Positions 2,892 to 26,919 of a stretch of DNA of 32,000 bases are shown here, in pieces. A program made the position numbers and the translations under genes. Under the pieces are notes generated by a model. It did not search any database. It was not told where the DNA came from and worked only from the letters and a program-made list of their open reading frames with translations. Source of the stretch: an uncultured archaeon (GTDB lineage: Archaea; Asgardarchaeota; Jordiarchaeia; Jordiarchaeales; Jordiarchaeaceae); NCBI GenBank assembly GCA_964510585.1, contig CAZECW010000113.1, positions 30,001 through 62,000 on the forward strand, written 5' to 3'. Numbering within the stretch: the stretch's first letter is position 1; every line of letters starts with the position of its first letter.

Positions 2892-3839
2892 TCATTCAAA
2901 ACATTTGGATGAGAGGTTCTCATCCTTGGCCCCGTAGTAGGGTTCGCGGAGTTCAACTGCTTTTAGAAACAGTTCTCTGAGAGTTTTGGAATCCGCACCT
3001 CCTCTGAGGGGGCCTATAATGTCAATAAGGTTGTCGCTTCGCATAAGGCAGGGTTTCAGCTTGCCATCACTTGTGAGGCGTATTCGGGTACAGTTTGAAC
3101 AAAAATCGCTGTTATGTACCGGTCTTACAATTTCCACTTCTGCACCGCCGGGTAGAAAGTACTTTTTTCTGTTCTGCATACTTTTTCTAGTAACCACCCT
3201 TTCTGCATAGCCTCCCAACTCCACCTCTAAGGGCTCCACATCCACGTGAAAACGCTGGAAAACCTCGTTTCCCAAATCCACAAGCTCAATCACCTGCAGA
3301 ATGGCGCCCTTGCTTTGAGAAAAACGCACCAAATCCCAAAACTCATTTTCATTCAACCCCCTCAATAAAACCATGTTAAGCTTAATGGGTCTAAGCCCAG
3401 CCGCCGAAGCCTCATCAATCCCACACAACACAGAGTCTAATTCATCAAAACCGGTAATTACCTTATATTTTTCAGGGACCAAGGAATCTAAACTAACATT
3501 TACCCTCTTTAACCCCACCTCTCTCAATTCCCAAGCCTTATCCGCAAGCAGAGTAGCATTAGTAGTCATAGAAACCTCCTCAATCCCGGGTACCGAGGAA
3601 ATCCTCTCCACCAATTCAAAAATATCCCTCCGCAGCAAAGGTTCCCCACCAGTCAACTTCACCCGCCTAACACCCTCAACCGCCGCCACTTCCACGATTC
3701 TCTCAATCTCATAAGCCTCCAACTCGCAACTAGGATTAATCTCACCCTCACCATGACAATAAATACACCTAAGATTGCAACGATGAGTAAGGGAAACCCG
3801 AATGTCCCTAATAGGCCTCCCATATCTGTCGCAAACCAT
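2892..3839 (-). CDS. moaA: GTP 3',8-cyclase (molybdopterin biosynthesis radical SAM enzyme)
   Basis: DRYGRPIRDIRVSLTHRCNLRCIYCHGEG (CxxxCxxC), LTGGEPLLR, NVSLDSL, C-terminal FCSNCTRIRLTSDGKLKPCL. Confidence 0.94.
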   Translation of the reverse strand: MVCDRYGRPIRDIRVSLTHRCNLRCIYCHGEGEINPSCELEAYEIERIVEVAAVEGVRRVKLTGGEPLLRRDIFELVERISSVPGIEEVSMTTNATLLADKAWELREVGLKRVNVSLDSLVPEKYKVITGFDELDSVLCGIDEASAAGLRPIKLNMVLLRGLNENEFWDLVRFSQSKGAILQVIELVDLGNEVFQRFHVDVEPLEVELGGYAERVVTRKSMQNRKKYFLPGGAEVEIVRPVHNSDFCSNCTRIRLTSDGKLKPCLMRSDNLIDIIGPLRGGADSKTLRELFLKAVELREPYYGAKDENLSSKCFE

Positions 3840-3970
3840 AATTGCACTCCCAAGATTCTAAACTAACAACCACAAAGAAACTTAAAACATTAACCCCACA
3901 AAACAAAAAAACATAAACTAACCAGAAAAGCCAAACCCACAAACAAAACACTAATCGCAAACCCAAAAAG

Positions 3971-4204
3971 TCAAAATTTAACTTCCCTAACCCGCGACGG
4001 CTTCTTAAAATCAATTCTTATAGCGTCAACAGGACAACGCGAAACACACATCTTACAACCCAGGCAGCTACTCTCATCCATAACCACAGCCAAACTCCTG
4101 TCCCCCAAATCCACAATTTTATAGATTCTGGCCCCCTTTGGACACACAGCCCTGCAAATACCCTCACCTCTACACTTCTCCGGATCAACAGTAATCCTGA
4201 CAAT
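3971..4204 (-). CDS. Dicluster-type ferredoxin
   Basis: CRGEGICRAVCP and CLGCKMCVSRCP. Start uncertain: GTG 4219 (ORF track) or ATT 4204, 7 nt after SD GAGGTG. Confidence 0.87.
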   Translation of the reverse strand: MVRITVDPEKCRGEGICRAVCPKGARIYKIVDLGDRSLAVVMDESSCLGCKMCVSRCPVDAIRIDFKKPSRVREVKF

Positions 4205-4326
4205 AAAAAACCACCTCACAAACTATAAAAAGCACATCCAACAAAACATAAAAACTTTAGCCTGAAAAATCAAAATCCAGAACAAAAATAAACCCACTCT
4301 AAAAGTCAAAAAAGGAATTCCAGACC

Positions 4327-4875
4327 TTAATCCGAGTCTTGGGAAGCCCTACTTAATAAGCTGCGCAAGAGACCGCCGGAAGGCTTCGCGCCATATTCCT
4401 TCACACTCTCAGAAGCCCTGGATTCCATTCTAACTTCACCAGCTTTAACCTCAGAAAGAACACTAGCAACAGAACGCAAAAAGTCGGGGTTAATACGCCA
4501 CTCCGTAGTATCCTGCCCCGCCCTACACTCCAAAAAATCAGAGCCCAAAACCTGCTGAGACTGAGTCAAAATAGTGCTTACACGCACCAGACCCACTCCC
4601 CTGTCCCAACTCCGTGCAACACGACACAACTCAAAAACAGTATACCAATTACCACTACTCAAAACGTCAAAAATAGCCCTCTTACACATGTCCCCCCCAA
4701 TCAATCTCCTCAGCATATCACTCTTACCCGAACTTGAACTCACACCAGAACCGTAACCCCAACTATGACCAGAAACGCTTGAAGAGCCAGACGGAGAATT
4801 AGAAGCAGAAGACTGAGAATTGGAATCACCACTAACCCTACCAAAAATCGACCTATGAGAATTCTCCTCAAGCAT
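4327..4875 (-). CDS. Hypothetical protein, Ser/Gly-rich N-terminus plus possible winged-helix domain
   Basis: 182-aa ORF co-oriented with the ferredoxin and moaA; ~50-aa low-complexity S/G tract, then a helical segment ending in a TEWRINP beta-hairpin-like wing. Confidence 0.65.
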   Translation of the reverse strand: MLEENSHRSIFGRVSGDSNSQSSASNSPSGSSSVSGHSWGYGSGVSSSSGKSDMLRRLIGGDMCKRAIFDVLSSGNWYTVFELCRVARSWDRGVGLVRVSTILTQSQQVLGSDFLECRAGQDTTEWRINPDFLRSVASVLSEVKAGEVRMESRASESVKEYGAKPSGGLLRSLLSRASQDSD

Positions 4876-5889
4876 AAAAGGAATCCTCCAAACCGCAAAT
4901 AACTACAGCTCACAGTTAAGGAATCTATCCGAAAACAAGATAAAAAATTGAGTAACACGCAACTAATACATATATAACTCAAAAAACCATAGAGTTCTTA
5001 TAAAAAAGGGGCCAAAAAAAGCACAAAGCACCACTAGTTTAAACGAGAAAACAATAAAAACACAAAAAACCAAAACGAAATAAACAAAAAACCGAAAACA
5101 ACAGAAAGATTTTTATTTGTAAAATACAAAATACATATTGGGGAAGTTGAACCTCACGCCGCGAAGTCCACACTAAGCTCACTAATCGCTTTCCCCCCTC
5201 ACTTGCATTGTCGTTGTTGGTCTTCTTTTTTTGTTTTGGTGTGGGCGTATGGGCGCGAGGGCTTCCCTGACGTTTACTTCTTCCTCTGGAGAATGATTCA
5301 CCACATAGTTCACTTAATTTGGGTTTTTTACTTATTTTAACAAATTTTAAAATTGTTTTAGTGTTTGTTTTATTTATGGGGAGAAATAAACGTTTTTCCA
5401 GCACATTTTTAAATTCATTTTTCAAATGTTCAGTCTACAAAGAGAGAATGGAAACAATTACAAGTTGCACAACTCAGCAATTTTATAAATGGTTTAAAGG
5501 AAATCTAAAAAATATTTGAGGTGTATGTCTAACCCATGGGGGGGATACACCTTTTTAGCTGAGGATGGGAATCGCTCAGATTTTTAAGGGAAGTGAAGGC
5601 TAAAATTGAGGATAGAAAAAGGGCTCTTTTTTAGCAATTATAGAGGGTTATTCCCAGTTTTCCCCTTACAATGGCTAAATGTGTATGGAAAAGGCTTGTT
5701 CCACTGAATATCACCAAAGTTAAGGCATACGTGGTTCTGCGCTTCTGTGTGTGAAGTACACCGCAGCGCTTTTAATTGCTTTAGAACCCTTTTTCTGGTG
5801 GGTGGGCCCCATTGCTCTTTTATTAGTTGTATTTTTGTGTTGTTCCATCTTTGGGGATGGTGAACTGCTGCTTTATTTTTTGGTGATTA

Positions 5890-6522
5890 TTATTTTTGTT
5901 TGTCTTCGATTATTATTTCTTCGATTCCCTCTTTGGTGATTTTGTGTATTTGGATTCTGCCTCCTGATGCTGTGTCGCGAGCTTTGGCTGCTCTTACTGC
6001 TCTTATGGCTAGGTCTTTTGCTTCTTCTACGGTGATGCCGTCTTTGTATTCGTCTTCCAGTACTCCGTAGGCTATCACGGATCCTGATCCAGTTGCTCCA
6101 AATTTTGGTTCTTCTAGTAGGCTTCCTAGGGGATCTAGAGTGTAGATGTGTGGGCCTGTTTCGTCTACTCCTCCTAGGACTGGCATGGTAATGTATGGGT
6201 TGATTCGGTTTTGGTATAGTAGTACGGACATGAGGTTTGCTGCTGCTTTTACGGTGACGTCTCTTCCTATTTCGTGTTTTCTGAGGGCTAGGTTTGCGGA
6301 CATTATTTTTGCTACCTGCTGGCAGTCGGCAACGCCCCCGGAGATGGTCATGGATATTCGGGGGGCTATTTTGTATATTTTGGGGGCGGTTATGTTGGCC
6401 ACTATGTTCCCCATGGTTGCTTGGGATTCTGTTGCCAGTATTACTCCGTCCTTGCAGACGATTCCCAAAGTGGTTGTGCCGCTTACATATATATTATCGT
6501 TAATTTTATTGTCTCTGCTCAT
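5890..6522 (-). CDS. psmB: Proteasome endopeptidase beta subunit
   Basis: Propeptide ending SG then TTTLGIVCKDGVILA; mature Thr1, Glu17 and Lys33 present; ATGSGS and RDTASGG motifs. Confidence 0.97.
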   Translation of the reverse strand: MSRDNKINDNIYVSGTTTLGIVCKDGVILATESQATMGNIVANITAPKIYKIAPRISMTISGGVADCQQVAKIMSANLALRKHEIGRDVTVKAAANLMSVLLYQNRINPYITMPVLGGVDETGPHIYTLDPLGSLLEEPKFGATGSGSVIAYGVLEDEYKDGITVEEAKDLAIRAVRAAKARDTASGGRIQIHKITKEGIEEIIIEDKQK

Positions 6523-6594
6523 GGTTACCCTACTCCTGAATTTCTGTCTGTGTATTTAGTATTGAGGTTTTTGCTTTTATTGACTTGGTAGGTG

Positions 6595-6608
6595 AAGTAT
6601 TAATACTT
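6595..6608. promoter_or_regulatory. Perfect 14-bp palindrome overlapping a BRE/TATA-like element upstream of psmB
   Basis: AAGTATTAATACTT is self-complementary; the minus strand reads GAAAAAG-TATTAATA about 75 bp above the psmB start. Confidence 0.4.
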
Positions 6609-6938
6609 TTTCATATTAAACCTGCCTAACCTTCCTGCCGGACAGTATCGCCAAAGATGGGAATATGGCTGAATGGGAGGGAAGGACTGCATTGGGATGC
6701 TAGTGTTTTCCCCAATTGTTCAGTTTTTAAACTGGTTTGAAAAATGTGTGAGAAAGATATAGTATTCCCCACCTAAGCGCATCGTCAACCAACCTTCGCA
6801 GAGAAGAAGATAATTCTCCCAAAAATACTTGAGATAAATGGGATAAGTGTTTAAAGAATAGTTATGTTGTGTTAGCAATAGGTTTATGACTTATTATTGA
6901 GGGTTTGGTGGTGGTTTTATATTTTTGAGTTTCTTTTT

Positions 6939-7973
6939 TTAGAAGGTTTCTGTGGAGTCTACTACGTCTTCTAGGAATTTTTGGTATTTGAGGACTACTT
7001 TTTCTTTTAGGTCCATTGCTAGAACTGGGTTTACTTTGGCGATTTTTCTGAGTAGGAATTCGACGAGGAGTTCGTTTGTTTCTCCGTTGACTTTCAGGGC
7101 TATATTGTCTGAGCCCATGCATTCTAGGAGTACGCTTAGAATTTCTTCTCGGTCTTCGCTTCCACCGTAAGAGAAGAGGCGTAGGAGTTCGTTTCCGGCG
7201 ATTCTTGTGAAGAAGAGTTTTAATTCTTTTAGATCTTTTTTGAGGAGGTTTGAGACTCCGGCTTTGATTATGCTCCAAACGAAGTCGTAGGCAACTCCCT
7301 CTCTTCTAACCACGAAAACGCACAGGAGGATGTCCTCTAAATCTTTAGTGTTTTTTTCCCTCTCAACGGCTAGGGCAATTTTTTGCCTGTCAAGCTTCTC
7401 AACGAAATCTTCCACAAGTAGGGGGTCTATTTCAAGGAGACACCGCAAACATAGGGCTAGAGAGGACAGGTCTTCTCCGGTGCTCAGCCTTTCTATTATG
7501 GTGCCCCAATCCATTTTTAGGGCCAGTTCCCTGGCGACTGTCTTATTTACTGAACCTAATGCTTCCAGAAAAAGGACCGGGTCTGTAAAATTTCCAGTAT
7601 AGTTGTTGAGTTTATTAAGTAGGGATTCTTTGTTCATGTTGTCGGCCAGCCATTCTGGAACCCAGCTGGAGGGCAATCCTTTGGAGCCTTGCCCAAGATA
7701 ACTGAAGAATTTTCTAATCACTCCCAAATCTTCTTCACTATTCAACTTCTCAACCAAAACAGGCAAATCTAATCCATTAAGTAACTCTTCAACCAAGTTT
7801 TTGGTCTCAAAACTCATCTGAAAAACAACCAGTCCAATCTTGCTCAGTTCTGGATTTCTATTAAGCTCATCCATAACGGCTTTTAGCTCCTCCACTGACA
7901 AGAGAGCTCTGCGCACCAGCTCTCTACTCTCATTCAATAAACGGTCAGAATCTGAATGGTCTCCCTGTGCCAT
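6939..7973 (-). CDS. Hypothetical alpha-helical repeat (solenoid-like) protein
   Basis: 351-aa ORF (GTG 7994 or ATG 7973 after GGAGG), Leu/Glu/Lys-rich, with visible ~40-aa degenerate repeats. Confidence 0.8.
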   Translation of the reverse strand: MAQGDHSDSDRLLNESRELVRRALLSVEELKAVMDELNRNPELSKIGLVVFQMSFETKNLVEELLNGLDLPVLVEKLNSEEDLGVIRKFFSYLGQGSKGLPSSWVPEWLADNMNKESLLNKLNNYTGNFTDPVLFLEALGSVNKTVARELALKMDWGTIIERLSTGEDLSSLALCLRCLLEIDPLLVEDFVEKLDRQKIALAVEREKNTKDLEDILLCVFVVRREGVAYDFVWSIIKAGVSNLLKKDLKELKLFFTRIAGNELLRLFSYGGSEDREEILSVLLECMGSDNIALKVNGETNELLVEFLLRKIAKVNPVLAMDLKEKVVLKYQKFLEDVVDSTETF

Positions 7974-8802
7974 CGAGTCTTGACTCCTCCACAATTATAA
8001 ACTAGCCATCCCATATTTCACGTACTAGACGGGGGGTCTACACCCTTAAAAGATAAATGCGCTATCCCGAATTATTAACGTTTTCTAATCTAACACAAAC
8101 TCTAAACGATCATACTCCTCGATTTGCTATTTAGAGTATCTACAGACCAACGGGAAAACCACGTATGCTTACAGGCCTCAAACAAAGCCTCGTATGTTTC
8201 CACGATCCAGATAATACAGAAATAAGGTCTTCAAATATTTTAGGAAATCCTCGAATATGTGAATTTCTGCGTGGCTTTCGCTATTCTCAGCGGTTTTTAT
8301 CATATTCAGTTTGCCATTTGCATGGCCTCTTAATCAATATGTACGCGCTTCCTGTCTAAATGGGGTAGACAAAAGAAAGTTTGGGAAGAAGACTCAAGAT
8401 GATGTAGTTTCGTTCAATTTCGCCTTTGAAAGAAGCTTTCGTAGGGCTTCTTTTCCGATTTAGAGCCTCAAAATGGAGGGTAGAATCGGACTAATCTGCA
8501 TCGCCGAGGACTCAATCAGAAAAGATTTAAATATTCTCTTTGTTTTTTTCTTACTGTCATGGAGGTCAACGGAAGTGTATCGCCGCCAAATTTGACAGCT
8601 AAAAGGCAAAACTACTTCTCAACTGTGAAAAGGCTAAGCCTTCCGTTGAAAACTTTTAATAACATGCATAAAATTATTTCTGGGGAGCTAGTTTCCCAAA
8701 AAATTCCTTGTAAAAGGTATTATGACAAAATTTTTCAGGATAAATCATTCTCTAACAATCTTCTAGTGATAACAGAAAAATCTTGCGCTGGAAGTGAAAA
8801 GT

Positions 8803-11800
8803 ATGCCCCTCTATAAGGACGTTGAAACTACACCTGATTATCCAAAAATCGAAGAGGAAATCCTAAAATTCTGGAAGCAAAACAAGATATTCCAAAAAAC
8901 CCAAGAATTCCGGGAAAAAAACAATAAGGGATGGTTCGTTTTCCTTGAGGGCCCGCCCACCGCAAATGGGTTGCCCCACGTAGGCCACGTTCTAACCAGA
9001 GCGGTAAAAGATGTGGTTATGAGATACAGGACAATGAAGGGCGAGTATGTAAACCCTCGACGGGCTGGGTGGGACACTCATGGTCTTCCGGTGGAGCTTG
9101 AAGTTGAAAAGGCTCTGGGTTTGAATAGCAAGAAGGAAATTGAGGAGTACGGTGTTGCAAAGTTTAATGAGAAGTGTAGGGAAAGCGTTTTCCGCTACGA
9201 GAAGGAATGGGTTAGGATGACGGAGCGTGTAGCCACCTGGATGGATATGGATAATCCCTATGTTACACTTGAGCCGTATTTTATTGAGTCTGTTTGGTGG
9301 TCTTTGAAGCAGATTTGGAGCAAGGGTAACCTGTATCGTGATTACTATGTGGTCTTGTATTGTCCTCGCTGTGGCACCCCTTTAAGTGCACATGAAGTGG
9401 CTTTGGGTGGCTATAAGGATGTTAAGGATCCCTCTATTCATATTAAGTTTAAGCTGTTGGGGGAGGAAAACACTTATTTTTTGGCTTGGACGACTACGCC
9501 TTGGACCCTGCTTTCTAATGTGGCTTTGGCGGTTCATCCAGATTATGATTATATTTTGGTGGAGTATAAGGGTGAGCGGTTGATTCTAGCTAAGGCTCTC
9601 CAAATGGTTCTTGAGGGTAATTACAAGATTGTTCGGGAGTTTAAGGGTAAGGAATTGGAGGGCTTAGAGTATTGGCCACTGTTTGATTTCGTTAAGCCAG
9701 AGAAGAAGGCTTTTGTTGTGGTTTTGGCGGATTTTGTCACCCTCACTGAGGGTACCGGTATTGTACATATGGCTCCAGCTTTTGGCGCTGAAGACTTTGA
9801 AGTCGCCAAAAAATATGACTTGGCAATTATACAATTGGTTGACGAGGCCGGCCGCATAAAGGAAGAAGCCAAACCCTTTGCCGGGATGAAGGTTAAGGAT
9901 GCGGATAAAAAGATAATTGAAGCTTTAAGAGAGAAAGGACTACTCTTCCGCGAGGGAGTTTTGGAACACGCTTATCCCTTCTGCTGGCGCTGCGATACCC
10001 CTCTTCTCTATTATGCCATTGAAACATGGTATATTAAATTGAGTGCTCTGCGGGAGAATCTACTCCGGAACAATGAGAAGATAAACTGGTATCCTCGACA
10101 CCTTAAGCATGGACGCTTCGGCAACTTTCTCGAGGAGGGCAAGGACTGGGCTCTAAGCCGTAACCGATTTTGGGGAACACCACTTCCCATATGGAAGTGC
10201 GATAATAAACACTATGTTTGTGTGGGAAGCTTCAAGGAGCTAGAAGAGTATGCAGGCCCTCTACCTAAGGATTTTGATCCCCATAGACCCTACGTGGACC
10301 AGATTACTTTTGCCTGTCCTGAGTGCGGTGCAAATATGAAGAGGGAGCCCTACGTAATTGACTGTTGGTACGATTCTGGTGCAGCATCATTTGCGGAGCA
10401 TCACTACCCATTTGAAAACAAAGAATTTTTTGAGAAAACTTTCCCAGTAACATTCATCACAGAAGCCATAGATCAGACTCGAGGCTGGTTCTTCAGCCTG
10501 CACGCTGTGGCAACCGCTGTTTTCGACAGTCACGCATATCAGAATGTGGTTTCCCTAGGCCACGTTCTAGACGAACACGGACACAAGATGAGTAAATCTC
10601 GGGGAAACGTTGTTGACCCGAATGTAATATTTAGAAATGAGGGCGCGGATGCAATGCGCTGGTACTTCTTTGTGTCCAGCCCACCTTGGGCACCTAAAAG
10701 ATTCAGTGAAAAAATGGTGATTGAAACCAGAAACCATTTCCTGAATACTCTCTGGAACGCCTATTACTTCTATGTCACCAACGCCAACATAGACGATTTT
10801 AATCCTTACGATGATAAATTCAAGAAAAAGGATTCGCAGAACATTCTTGATAGGTGGCTTAAAAGCAGACTGAACCGCGTTATCAAAATTGTGGACTCAA
10901 GTATGAAGAGCTATATGATCCACACCGCTGCCAGAGCAATCGATAAGTTTGTGGTGGACGAGTTAAGCAATTGGTATATTAGAAGGTCTAGGAGAAGATT
11001 CTGGAGGGCGGAAATGGACGAGGACAAAATCGCCGCCTATCACACACTCTTTGAAGCCCTGGAAAAAATAGTGAGAATTCTAGCACCATTTATACCACTA
11101 ATATCTGAGGCCATGTACCAAAACCTTTCCAAGGGAAACGGTGAAGCACCTGAAAGTGTACATATGACAGACTTCCCAGAATTCAAGGAGGAACTATTCG
11201 ATGATGAACTAGAGAAAAGTATGGGTTTAGCCATTGAAATTTCAAGTGCAGGACGCGCCGCCAGAGCCAGCAAAAACATAAAACTTAGACACCCCCTCCA
11301 AGAGCTGGTGGTAGTGGCAGATTCGGAAAGTCTAGATTACATAAAACCCTTAGAACACGTATTAAAGGACGAACTTAACGTTAAAAATGTCAAATATGAA
11401 ACTGACGATTCCAATTATGTCACCTACAAGCTTAAACCCAACTACAAAAACATCGGTCCAAAGTTTAAGAACCTAGCACCGAAAATAGTTCAAGAATTAG
11501 AGAGACTGGATCCTAAGGAAGCTGCACAGAAGCTTGCGGGACAGGGCAAGCTCACATTGTTCATTGGCGGTGAACAAGTGGAACTAACAAGTGAAGAAGT
11601 TGAAGTTGAAACTCTTGAAAAGGAGAATTATGTGATGGGCCAGGCCGGCCACGTAAAAGTATTTCTTAACACCATAATTACCCCCGAACTGGCAGAAGAA
11701 GCTCTGGCTAGAGAAATAGTGAGAAGAATACAGACTATGAGAAAAGAGATGAACCTTGACTACATGCAGAGAATAGAAGTATACATAGACTGCAGCAACA

Positions 11801-16527: not shown

Positions 16528-17751
16528 TTGTTTGAGGAAAATAGATTAACAAGAAAATCTACCATATTGTCGGGTGCAAACTTGCCTAAAGAGCTAGTAT
16601 CTTTAAGAAGGCTGTTAAAAAGGTATTTCAGATTAATTGCAGACTACTCCAAGGAACTCTACTCGGTGGACGACGGGTTCACAAAGCAAACAGAAAAGGA
16701 ATTTAAACAATATAAAACCAACCTTGTTCTTGAAGTAATCCAACAGTCTACCAAGTCTCTATCACAGTTCATATCATTCCTAGACACGCTTGTAAACGCC
16801 CTGAACCTCTGGTTTGAATTTTTCTTCAGCATAGTTAATTCTCTCGGGACACAGCAGTATTATGATATTATCCGCGGGAAAGTACGACTCGAAGAAATTG
16901 TAAAACCCGAAAAGGTTGACCTACACTTCCTGAGGTTTAACGTGGAAAACTCTGTAGCCTTCATTTATCCAAAAATAAAAGAACTATTCTCGGTCTTACT
17001 ATCCGAGGTAAAAGGTATGCTTAGCATTTTAAAAACCATAAAGTCTGAAGTCGCGGAACAATTTATAAATGAGTTGGAAGAAACATTAAAAAAGTGGCTG
17101 GCATCTGAAGAAAACCTCTACTGCATAATTGAGGAGGCACTACAAGACCAATCGGTAAACAGCGTAAATAAAATCATAAGCCTAGCTAACTATCTAATCG
17201 ATTTCGCCCGAAACTTTCTCCACTGCATTGGGTATATTAGTCCATCTATAAAGGCGGGAGAGGAGTACGAACTAGACGACTTCGTTACAGTCCTGGAGCA
17301 GATTAAAGGTATACAAAAGGATTTAACATTAATCCTTGATTTTCGAAGAAAAGCATATGAACATTCAGAAAAATTCAATGAGCAAATACCAATAGCTCTT
17401 TGGGGAGACAGAGAGACAGCTCTTAAAAAGTTCGAAGCCTTTGCCCGTTTCGAATTAAAAACTGATAAATTGATTCCGGAAAATGTTAGTGCCGAGGATC
17501 TGGCCTTTGGTTTAGTGCAGGCAAAGGCAGAACTCAACATTGTTAGTAATGCAATCGAAATGGAAAAAGAAAAAATATATGCACTTAAAGCCGCTGCGGA
17601 TCTTCTTGAGAGTCCTATCCTAAAAATCCTATATCAAGGCATATTAAAGAGAAGAAAAATAGCAAAAAAGTATATACAGCTTCTCTACCAAAATTTGGAT
17701 GATTTACAGAGAGAAACACAAAAAGTTCTAGAGTCAAAAGGCCAACATTAA
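16528..17751 (+). CDS. Hypothetical all-alpha protein
   Basis: 407-aa ORF filling the gap between thioredoxin and gdhA; amphipathic helical pattern throughout; no family recognised. Confidence 0.8.
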   Translation: MFEENRLTRKSTILSGANLPKELVSLRRLLKRYFRLIADYSKELYSVDDGFTKQTEKEFKQYKTNLVLEVIQQSTKSLSQFISFLDTLVNALNLWFEFFFSIVNSLGTQQYYDIIRGKVRLEEIVKPEKVDLHFLRFNVENSVAFIYPKIKELFSVLLSEVKGMLSILKTIKSEVAEQFINELEETLKKWLASEENLYCIIEEALQDQSVNSVNKIISLANYLIDFARNFLHCIGYISPSIKAGEEYELDDFVTVLEQIKGIQKDLTLILDFRRKAYEHSEKFNEQIPIALWGDRETALKKFEAFARFELKTDKLIPENVSAEDLAFGLVQAKAELNIVSNAIEMEKEKIYALKAAADLLESPILKILYQGILKRRKIAKKYIQLLYQNLDDLQRETQKVLESKGQH

Positions 17752-23652: not shown

Positions 23653-24082
23653 AACACTAAAAATAGCCAAAAACCCAGGAACAGTTTTTAATACTCTTTA
23701 ATATCTATTACAACCTATCGCTGGATAATCCTATAGGGAAACGCTTCCATCAAAAAGGGGATTTAACGGATAATACTCCCGTTGATGATAGAAAGCCAAG
23801 CACTGGTCGTAATTTTGAATCCCAAACTGAAGCGGCAAAGTTCTACTTATTTCACCATTTCTCTGATTTCTGTCATAGTATATCTTTTTTTCCTACCATG
23901 TTACTCGAGCTCACAATCCGATTCAGATATCATATTTTTATCACTTTTTGAAGAAATAAACTTTTTTAGTTAATTTATGAATAAAAAAATTTAATAAATA
24001 AATATATAAAAAAATGTTTAACATTCTGTGGGATTCAAATACTCAAAAAAGGAAAAGACTAAAAACCCAAAAACTAACCGAG

Positions 24083-24661
24083 TTGAACACATTGATAATA
24101 CACAACATTTACATTATAAGCTCTGAAGGAATATGCCCCCTAAGCATAAAACTAGGCTCCATAGATACAGATCCACAAATAATAGCAGGAGTATTTGCAG
24201 CTTCTCAAAAATTTTGGGCCCACCTTACAGGCGAAGACCCTCAATCCATAAACTTTCACAACTTAAAGGCGCACTTGAGGCAGTTTAGCACAGGAGAAAA
24301 AAATTGGTACCTTGTAATTATTTTAGAATTTGAAAATCCACAACTACTACGAACAGTTGAAAAAAGCATATTAGAGGTGGTAATGAAGAACAAAGAGATT
24401 TTCGAAAAATTTGTCGCCGACACAAACGAAATCAGCGTGAATGTTAAAAACCAAATCTTAGAAAGATTAAGAAAAATTCGTTGCCCCTATTTACAGGTAA
24501 AAATCTTCAAACACTTTTGCAAATTAAAAATCAATAGACTTGAAAAAAACAACTGTAACATCATAGCCATATCTGATTGCAAGGAAAAGATAAAAGAGCA
24601 ATTACACCCTATCGAGAAAAAAGTTTCTAATCAATTAAATTTCCAAAGTAGTAGTGGATGA
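24083..24661 (+). CDS. Longin-like domain protein with Cys-rich C-terminal module (paralog 1)
   Basis: IIHNIYIISSEGICP...DPQIIAGVFAASQKF pattern typical of longin beta-hairpin plus helix. TTG 24083 matches the paralog's N-terminus; ATG 24014 is possible. Confidence 0.72.
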   Translation: MNTLIIHNIYIISSEGICPLSIKLGSIDTDPQIIAGVFAASQKFWAHLTGEDPQSINFHNLKAHLRQFSTGEKNWYLVIILEFENPQLLRTVEKSILEVVMKNKEIFEKFVADTNEISVNVKNQILERLRKIRCPYLQVKIFKHFCKLKINRLEKNNCNIIAISDCKEKIKEQLHPIEKKVSNQLNFQSSSG

Positions 24662-25059
24662 TGGCAATGAGTCTAAGATTTAGTATAGGATTATTTTTCG
24701 ATTGTCCTATTAATTGTTTTCTGTCACCCTTTCTTCGCCTGGAGGATTGTTTTTATACTCCAAGCCCTTTAGGTGGAAATTACCCTTTAGGAATAGGGTT
24801 TAAACATAATACCTCCAAAGCAAAATATAATGGAAAGTGGATGAGAAGGAACATAGATGTCAAGGAATAGTAATATATACACCTTGTGGAAGCACTTCCT
24901 CCAATCTTTGGTTCAAATTGCACTAGAGCCTTTTTATGTTCCAAATAAAACATTTATAAACAAATTTGAGATTAAGTATACAAGATGAAACTGATTTCGT
25001 TGAGTCCTTAGGTATAGTGAGGTTAATGAAAATTACAAAACTGGAAAGCACACCTTCGT

Positions 25060-25644
25060 TTGGAGTGGAAAGATTTGATTATTCATAATATCTATATCAT
25101 AAATTCAGATGGGATTTGTCCCGTAAGCCTAACTCTTGGTTCTATTGAGGCAGATCCCGATTTGATTGCGGGAATTTTCACCGCTTCTCAGAAGTTCTGG
25201 GGGGAGGTCACAGGAGAGACACCTCAATCCATCTCCTTTAAAAATATGAATGCCTATATTAAGCCTTTCTCTACAGGTGAAAAGGACTGGTATTTGATTC
25301 TGATATCTGAGGCAGAAAAACCGGAGCTTTTGAAAAAAGTAGAAGACATCATATTCAAGATTATAGAGGAAAAAAAGGAGCTGTTTGAAAAATTTTTTGC
25401 AGATACAACAGATATCAACAACATTGTGGGCGGAGCCATAATAGAAGCATTAACTTTAATTCCCTGCCCCCATATAAGTAAAAATCTCTTTAAAAATGTG
25501 TGTGAAATTGACGGTAAACAGATAGAACCCAAATATTGTAACTGTGTTTCCATGGCAACATGTAAAACCAAAATCAGGGAATACCATAAGGAAGATTTCT
25601 CGGTTGTAGGGCTACTTGACAAGTTTTTCGAAAGCCTAAGATAA
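25060..25644 (+). CDS. Longin-like domain protein with Cys-rich C-terminal module (paralog 2)
   Basis: IIHNIYIINSDGICP...DPDLIAGIFTASQKF; aligns without gaps to paralog 1. Confidence 0.75.
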   Translation: MEWKDLIIHNIYIINSDGICPVSLTLGSIEADPDLIAGIFTASQKFWGEVTGETPQSISFKNMNAYIKPFSTGEKDWYLILISEAEKPELLKKVEDIIFKIIEEKKELFEKFFADTTDINNIVGGAIIEALTLIPCPHISKNLFKNVCEIDGKQIEPKYCNCVSMATCKTKIREYHKEDFSVVGLLDKFFESLR

Positions 25645-26094: not shown

Positions 26095-26919
26095 TTGCCG
26101 AAAAGGGTGCAGTTTATGCTGAGTTTGGCGCAATTTATAATTTATGCGTATTTCCTTAGCGATTTTTATCGTTTATCTGCTGTTTTCGGCGTCTCTTCAG
26201 GGATGTATACCAAGCTTTATTTCTCAGCGTTAGCATCACTGGTTGCCTTTTTAGTTTCAGCTTCGCTTTTTATTAGATCTCGAAAACAACCTCCGGGCAA
26301 GAAAACATTCGTCCTTCTATCCATAGCAACTTTTGTTGGTGGACTCTCCACACTAAGCGTGGCCATTGCTTCGTATTTCTACATCACAACGCCCAGCCTT
26401 TTCACCTTCGTTCCCACGGTGACATTAGTGATGTACCGCATACACTTTGTTTCCATCCCTCTGATCTTGGTGTTTTTCTGGCTATTCTTCTCACAACTAA
26501 TACGGGTAAGGAGAGTAATAATCTACGTTTTCATCATAGTATTCCTAATAATGCTAATTCTTAATTCTATTACCCCAATTACTGCAGAAGAAGTACAGCT
26601 AACGCTTTCTGTTAACATGAGCTTGGTCGCCTCCCTAGTAACACTCGTCACCTGGCTGGTTGCTTTCTTGATAATCGCCCTCTCCTTCTATTACTACGCT
26701 TCCAAACAAAAAGACGAGCGCCGCATAATGGGCATGATTCTGGGAACCGCCGCGATCTCCGCAATAATGGTTCAAGTATCCAATTTGTTTGCACTCCTCC
26801 TGAGCAACGCAGTTCTGGAAGCCAGTGTATGGTTATTTGCGGCATTGGCCTTCACACTAATGTACTTTGGATTACTGCCCCCAAAACGCCTCTTACCCAA
26901 GCAACAAACTGGAGAGTAG
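26095..26919 (+). CDS. Polytopic membrane protein (~8 TM), sensor-like, no catalytic domain
   Basis: About eight hydrophobic 20-26 aa segments with basic loops; ends YFGLLPPKR. Confidence 0.82.
   Translation: MPKRVQFMLSLAQFIIYAYFLSDFYRLSAVFGVSSGMYTKLYFSALASLVAFLVSASLFIRSRKQPPGKKTFVLLSIATFVGGLSTLSVAIASYFYITTPSLFTFVPTVTLVMYRIHFVSIPLILVFFWLFFSQLIRVRRVIIYVFIIVFLIMLILNSITPITAEEVQLTLSVNMSLVASLVTLVTWLVAFLIIALSFYYYASKQKDERRIMGMILGTAAISAIMVQVSNLFALLLSNAVLEASVWLFAALAFTLMYFGLLPPKRLLPKQQTGE

Follow-up and report, generated by a model that had tools for sequence, protein, structure and literature searches.

The window analysed here, a 32,000-nucleotide stretch of an Asgard archaeal contig, carries two tandem genes on the forward strand whose products share a tail with four identically spaced cysteines; the question is what proteins of this kind do. 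The earlier note on this DNA took the two ORFs (A, 24014–24661; B, 25060–25644) for longin-like paralogs, within 24083–25644, and proposed a longin plus Zn/Fe–S module, possibly a redox- or metal-sensing heterodimer. The explanation preferred here, given a probability of roughly one in two, is that A and B are cytoplasmic proteins of about 180–190 aa in which the longin part forms a dimer that serves a small GTPase as a non-catalytic platform and carries a structural zinc knuckle as an accessory docking element. The pair itself would go back to one of several duplications, each specific to a lineage, that an old longin-Cys4 fusion has undergone; tandem duplication as such is ordinary.

Table 1. 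Features of the longin-Cys4 locus, with positions in the window.
Feature	Position	Strand	Basis or remark
AT-rich conserved block 5′ of A	24005..24056	+	Ortholog comparison; putative promoter/leader
Paralog A, longin + Cys4 tail	24092..24661	+	Likely start TTG 24092; frame open from ATG 24014
Longin domain of A	24092..24478	+	Assigned via gapless alignment to B
Cys4 module of A	24482..24580	+	C-x11-C-x11-C-x7-C
Paralog B, longin + Cys4 tail + short C-terminal helix	25075..25644	+	Likely start TTG 25075 (alternative 25060)
Longin domain of B	25075..25461	+	Predicted β-β-α-β-β-β-α-α; structural matches
Cys4 module of B	25465..25563	+	Predicted: Cys1–Cys2 flank a basic β-hairpin with hydrophobic tip; Cys3–Cys4 lead into and lie within a helix
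Stand-alone ~7-TM membrane protein	26095..26919	+	No Pfam/NCBIfam family; candidate partner

A BLASTP comparison aligns A and B without gaps, with 88 of 173 residues identical (51%, E = 5e-68). As had been described, the identity decays along the proteins, from 12–14 per 20 residues at the N-terminus to 3–7 per 20 in the tail; the original count of 39 identities among the first 55 aligned residues holds for a start at B residue 6, other start offsets giving values down to 36. The tail Cys residues occupy positions 157, 169, 181 and 189 in A (P0001) and 136, 148, 160 and 168 in B (P0002), which confirms the identical C-x11-C-x11-C-x7-C spacing. Among the genome's 24,931 stop-to-stop frames, only A and B have this exact pattern; the B tail has a fifth Cys, C162, which is not conserved. 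Since the two are gap-free paralogs at 51% identity, a common spacing is expected, and the real evidence lies in the invariance of the Cys across distant homologs.

The starts listed in Table 1 are likely because TTG 24083 is TGG in the ortholog from G003, the ATG at 24014 is missing from G001, G003 and G004, and close relatives of B are mostly called as 189-aa proteins. Both copies are under purifying selection; dN/dS values against orthologs are 0.08–0.27 for A and 0.04–0.23 for B. The AT-rich block upstream of A is probably a promoter or leader, judging from its conservation among orthologs, and a related block precedes the lone B-type gene in G005. A promoter and terminator scan gave results at chance level with a sigma70 model, which is unsuited to archaea. 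The 70-aa ORF between A and B (24658–24870) is not conserved in orthologous spacers. Neither a signal peptide nor a TM segment was found in the A and B sequences.

In eukaryotes, the longin fold serves in the regulation of small GTPases. The AF2 model of B has a pLDDT of about 90 for residues 1–130, and DSSP gives strands at residues 3–10, 17–20, 52–54, 59–66 and 71–78 and helices at residues 28–46, 83–99 and 112–126, in the five-stranded longin order. Its best structural match is the VAMP7 longin (Z = 12.3, RMSD 2.3, 113 aligned residues); further matches are AP-4 μ, δ-COP, TRAPP and Mon1–Ccz1 (Z = 10.6–12.2). The best 25 rows of a VIA structure search are all longin-containing chains (Z = 10.4–12.3), and the best roadblock protein scores Z = 10.3 over 98 residues. 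The modelled topology and the ranking of longins above roadblocks identify the N-terminal ~130 aa as a longin fold, as the earlier note had supposed. At the sequence level, Pfam and NCBIfam gave no significant match for A, B or 25 homologs, and PDB searches with the proteins gave none; untailed relatives match PF19036 (Fuz_longin_1; E = 2e-6 and 6e-6), and the ESM Atlas neighbour cluster of the family is 22% PF19036 (score 0.91).

Longin-Cys4 is thus a member of the longin fold family and neither a roadblock nor a GAP-type longin. Roadblock/LC7 proteins are expected to have an N-terminal helix before the sheet (PMC10933270), and the modelled protein starts with strand 1. GAP longins are marked by a GP motif and an arginine finger (PMC12290439); in the longin-Cys4 alignments the GP motif before strand 2 is replaced by G-[IVL]-C, and there is no arginine finger, no column having ≥30% Arg. 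Longin strand 2 opens with a Cys (G-x-C, 25117–25119 in the window) that is near-invariant in the family and common in the other Asgard longins of the genome.

Behind the longin, the four Cys columns are invariant in 44 tail sequences, some merely 13–30% identical to B, and all four Cys are kept in 78 of 81 non-identical full-length homologs (68 counted by regular expression and 10 read by eye). The three exceptions are near-identical to one another; they are of the Ca. Freyrarchaeum guaymaensis type and have a shortened variant of the arrangement. Conservation of the Cys, on which the earlier note had made its proposal depend, is thus found in orthologs and also in distant homologs, though the spacing, 11/11/7 in the host genus, varies elsewhere (9–15/10–20/7–8).

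The closest named homologs come from Ca. Jordarchaeum and Ca. Freyarchaeum deiterrae, which places the host among the Jordarchaeia/Freyarchaeia. Tail-only profiles run against ~400 Asgard genomes found the tail in the host and 13 further genomes, namely 5/5 of the host's own family, 3/3 of the family containing Ca. Atabeyarchaeum and 5/5 of the Ca. Borrarchaeum family, the last assigned through one named cluster member. It was not found in the ~30 other Asgard families searched, which include many incomplete MAGs. All the significant matches that were opened lie behind a longin in a longin ORF, and the search with the tail alone, which the earlier note had suggested, places the tail in three Asgard lineages. 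Weak matches in other families (E = 1e-3 to 1e-2) turned out to be shadow frames or unrelated genes, e.g. F420-ligase-like. Scanning 1.84 billion representatives brought in further, divergent members from metagenomes, and several of these have an extra winged-helix-like domain; a search for longer fused forms of longin-Cys4 found none, which is weak evidence. When the tree is restricted to the longin part, the tailed proteins cluster (2 label changes vs 12.6 when shuffled), and a single tailed clade has p-AU = 0.76; this tree does not reject a single origin of the tailed longins, nor prove one.

Copy number is fluid. In G000, G001, G003 and G004, the pair lies between an Lrp/AsnC gene, upstream of A, and the 7TM gene, downstream of B; in G002, one contig ends with A and another starts with B. 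The complete genome G005 (Ca. Freyarchaeum deiterrae) has a B-type gene alone at the locus and three paralogs elsewhere. The A-type proteins form a clade of their own (support 99/98) and fall outside the group of B-type proteins and paralogs from the nadE locus, whose support is weaker (88/92). This branching is consistent with an early duplication and a later loss of A from G005. Separate duplications gave two copies in the Atabeyarchaeia genome G021 and two to four at a gdhA–nadE locus, and two Atabeyarchaeia genomes have one longin-Cys4 copy.

An obligate or dedicated A–B heterodimer is therefore unlikely: the B-type gene stands alone at the G005 locus, two Atabeyarchaeia genomes have single copies, and other loci have 2–4 copies. 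The heterodimer of the earlier note is not borne out in this form. A model of A + B + 2 Zn, which gives no interface to compare with longin dimerisation through helix 1, reached a score of 0.56, the best control reaching 0.00; contacts agreed at ≥90% across runs, and the partner pLDDT was at least 74. This is a weak pass, since the pass mark is reached by 58/80 solved and 2/110 mismatched pairs, and at scores ≤0.60 by just 7 solved pairs and both mismatches. Longin dimers are textbook pairs with solved structures; the score may reflect likeness to these dimers, and it does not separate a homodimer from a heterodimer.

The predicted structure of the tail is less firm than that of the longin. 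Modelled alone from the 44 sequences, it gives a β-hairpin and a helix at pLDDT 89.8 in the best model and 69–76 in the other four; within the full-length model its confidence is low (pLDDT 54–75). In the tail model, Cys1 comes after longin helix 3, Cys1 and Cys2 bracket the hairpin, and Cys3 and Cys4 lead into and lie in the final helix. The Cys1–Cys2 segment has a mean net charge of +2.4 and, in 45 of 68 sequences, at least two hydrophobic tip residues; in P0028 and P0042 the tip is not hydrophobic. A basic hairpin with a hydrophobic tip would suit a docking or membrane-touching loop. Tail sequences gave nothing significant in Pfam, NCBIfam or PDB and no usable match in ESM Atlas, and the tail model gave no match in PDB or BFVD at E ≤ 0.001 (best VIA Z = 2.7). 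Many of the weak rows are zinc ribbons or fingers, none significant; the tail may be a new small metal-binding fold, of which the absence of matches is no proof.

In the preferred explanation, the four invariant Cys would together coordinate a single structural Zn ion. Pairing of longin domains would by default give homodimers, with A + B mixing possible, and the dimer would be a GEF- or adaptor-type platform for a small GTPase. The zinc knuckle would hold the basic, hydrophobic-tipped hairpin as an accessory docking surface, and the hairpin would dock on the membrane or on a protein in it, the adjacent 7TM protein being one candidate. Roadblock/longin dimers are reported to serve as GTPase platforms (PMC10933270), and one Borrarchaeum locus, with three Ras-family GTPase genes beside longin-Cys4, is an indirect hint from gene context. 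The same paper reports that some longins function without GTPases, which counts against the platform, as does the lack of a GTPase gene near A and B in the window.

The 7TM protein is also the basis of the first alternative, in which longin-Cys4 is the cytoplasmic coupling subunit of the adjacent membrane protein, relaying a signal from receptor through longin-Cys4 to small GTPase; it is compatible with the platform, and as an explanation in its own right it is possible but unlikely. The 7TM gene of the window directly follows B in all 6 genus genomes, and its family was found in that genus only. Stand-alone 7TM genes adjoin longin-Cys4 in 3 of ~10 distinct contexts against a background of 2.3% (host genome), a binomial value of ~1e-3 that was calculated by hand, post hoc and on small numbers. 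These contexts are the Jordarchaeia B gene together with the distant P0030 (7TM homolog, E = 1e-9); Atabeyarchaeia, where the genes are co-directional and, in L080, the 7TM begins immediately after the longin ends; and Borrarchaeum L043 with P0031. No mutual homology was detectable among the three 7TM groups, including the window and Atabeyarchaeia proteins. In Borrarchaeum G314 (L146:6116–10322), a 7TM gene (9471–10322) and a longin-Cys4-wHTH gene (8459–9238) converge on three tandem Ras-family (Rab-like) GTPases (6116–8369). Against such a subunit, most contexts have no 7TM, its orientation relative to longin-Cys4 varies, 450 bp separate B from the 7TM gene in the window, and next to a second 7TM copy in G002 the neighbouring genes seen include no longin; no fusion with a 7TM was found, which is weak evidence. 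A more far-reaching form, in which longin-Cys4 would link a stand-alone 7TM receptor to a Rab-like GTPase through a metal-bound membrane-docking finger of an undescribed fold, is doubtful. If true, it would be an Asgard receptor–GEF–GTPase relay with parts unlike the eukaryotic GPCR/G-protein pairs, and open to testing with three small genes.

Other arrangements were seen in these neighbourhoods. Two Cys-rich paralogs lie upstream in L146 of G314 (3366–4882). In L095 (5001–6904), longin-Cys4-wHTH heads an apparent operon with V4R-like and V4R (PF02830) genes, a set resembling the TRAPP core (longin + TRAPPC3), and a second longin-Cys4 gene lies 3 kb off. Longins with a predicted winged helix and without Cys4 converge on a stand-alone 6–7TM gene in G000:C98:13378–14007, L025 and L027, so longin–7TM adjacency extends past the Cys4-tailed subfamily. 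The genes at L029:7207 and 10352 (−), L030:7566 (−) and L153:3499 (+), which are the three G005 paralogs and one gene of another genome, have in common a three-block element of ~100 bp upstream, a candidate shared promoter/operator. The first of its blocks, near-palindromic and of AATATTGCGCA type, does not occur in the window. Six Cys in three CxxC-type pairs mark a 50-aa protein (L152:3485–3637; L153:3937–4089; L159:1492–1644, G000:C110) that has no Pfam match; its gene is single-copy in all six genus genomes and lies 5′ of longin-Cys4 in some and in an unrelated place in G000, and a search of the other relatives did not find it. Several paralogs are large proteins with a longin and a long coiled-coil at their end (G000:C191, C79, C27, C125, C21).

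A second alternative concerns the metal: the tail could hold an Fe–S cluster or labile metal, which would let the longin dimer sense redox state or metal. The four invariant Cys and the anaerobic host would suit it, and irregular Cys spacing is compatible with some Fe–S sites. Papers also report cases of Fe–S in zinc-binding domains. Sequence cannot separate Zn from Fe–S. The tail contains no ferredoxin-type, radical-SAM-type or other canonical Fe–S Cys pattern, no Fe–S family was matched by sequence or structure, and redox or metal genes are not consistent among the neighbours. A YkgJ/CxxCxxCC domain (PF03692) was rejected: its CxxCxxCC and C-x-[FL]..C..Y..RP..C motifs are absent, hhalign gave 9.2 against a null mean of 10.4, and one homolog reached E = 0.11 at most. 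Homology to the V4R/TRAPPC3 zinc site, four Cys on an α/β V4R domain, found no support; hhalign with one template stayed within the shuffled null, the domain is absent among the fold-search matches, and C-x7-C is the sole common feature. A structural Zn site is thus likelier than Fe–S, and the sensor is rather unlikely. The longin-plus-module architecture of the earlier note survives as one matching no described family; redox sensing found no support, and no tested point favours Fe–S or redox sensing over structural Zn.

No GTPase gene lies near A and B within the window, where the neighbours are metabolic. A third alternative is a regulator of amino-acid or nitrogen status by analogy with the GATOR1/FLCN longins; Liu et al. 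(10.1101/2020.10.19.343400) link NPRL2-like Asgard longins to amino-acid starvation. Such a role would fit the Jordarchaeia copies, which lie near genes for glutamate dehydrogenase, Lrp/AsnC, Gln-dependent NAD synthetase, SHMT and amino-acid permeases. This context is not conserved in Atabeyarchaeia and Borrarchaeum, and longin-Cys4 lacks both marks of GAP longins, the GP motif and the Arg finger (PMC12290439), which makes such a role improbable. Also in the window, at 16528–17751, a 407-aa ORF without a Pfam match at E = 1e-4 lies 5′ of glutamate dehydrogenase and is conserved in close relatives. Cytosolic disulfides are used by thermophilic archaea, and the even Cys number and a crude IVYWREL growth-temperature estimate of ~61 °C for the host genome would allow two stabilising disulfides with no metal, but this is very improbable, as the Cys are equally invariant in the soil-derived Freyarchaeum and Atabeyarchaeum deiterrae, which keep the module, and there is no signal peptide or TM segment.

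Among known systems, VAMP7, the AP/COPI σ/μ/ζ/δ subunits, TRAPP Bet5/Trs23 and Mon1–Ccz1/Fuz (PF19036) have the fold and the strand and helix order in common with longin-Cys4 (Z = 10.6–12.3 over 109–131 residues). The identity to eukaryotic longins is 8–16%; longin-Cys4 lacks their SNARE, μ-homology and DENN parts, and none of them matches the Cys4 tail. The GAP longins FLCN, NPRL2, SMCR8 and C9orf72 and their Asgard GP-motif relatives (PMC12290439) have the same fold and a conserved Gly before strand 2, but this is Gly–Pro in GAP longins and Gly followed by I/L/V-Cys in longin-Cys4, which has no conserved Arg and no DENN domain.

Asgard longins belong to the same superfamily, as does the Loki longin dimer PDB 8yqg (Z = 10.5), and an iterative HMM search found ~30 longin paralogs in the host genome. 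Asgard longins and many lineage-specific fusions of them are already known (10.1101/2020.10.19.343400; PMC10933270; PMC4917890), and domain shuffling by lineage is reported as typical of them (10.1101/2020.10.19.343400; PMC10933270). The fusion partners reported there include GTPase and roadblock domains as well as TRAPPC3/V4R, DENN and two-component domains; the Cys4 module, found in three lineages only, differs from these and does not appear in the passages searched. The earlier note did not recognise the architecture, and it remains without a match in Pfam, NCBIfam, PDB or the literature searched, which covered few subscription papers. Other Asgard longins have appendages too: P0050 combines a longin with a TRASH metal-binding domain (PF24273, E = 9e-7), likewise a Cys metal-binding appendage, and P0043 combines a longin with V4R; TRASH and V4R are known to Pfam and the Cys4 tail is not. 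Gene order does not reveal the partners of the dozens of longins that Asgard genomes hold (PMC10933270). The tail of the longin-Cys4 subfamily is diagnostic and sharply distributed: every genome sampled in three families has it, and it was found in none of the ~30 further families searched. Candidate partners recur (7TM proteins; in one case three Rab-like GTPases, in another two V4R/TRAPPC3-like genes), which makes specific pairings testable.
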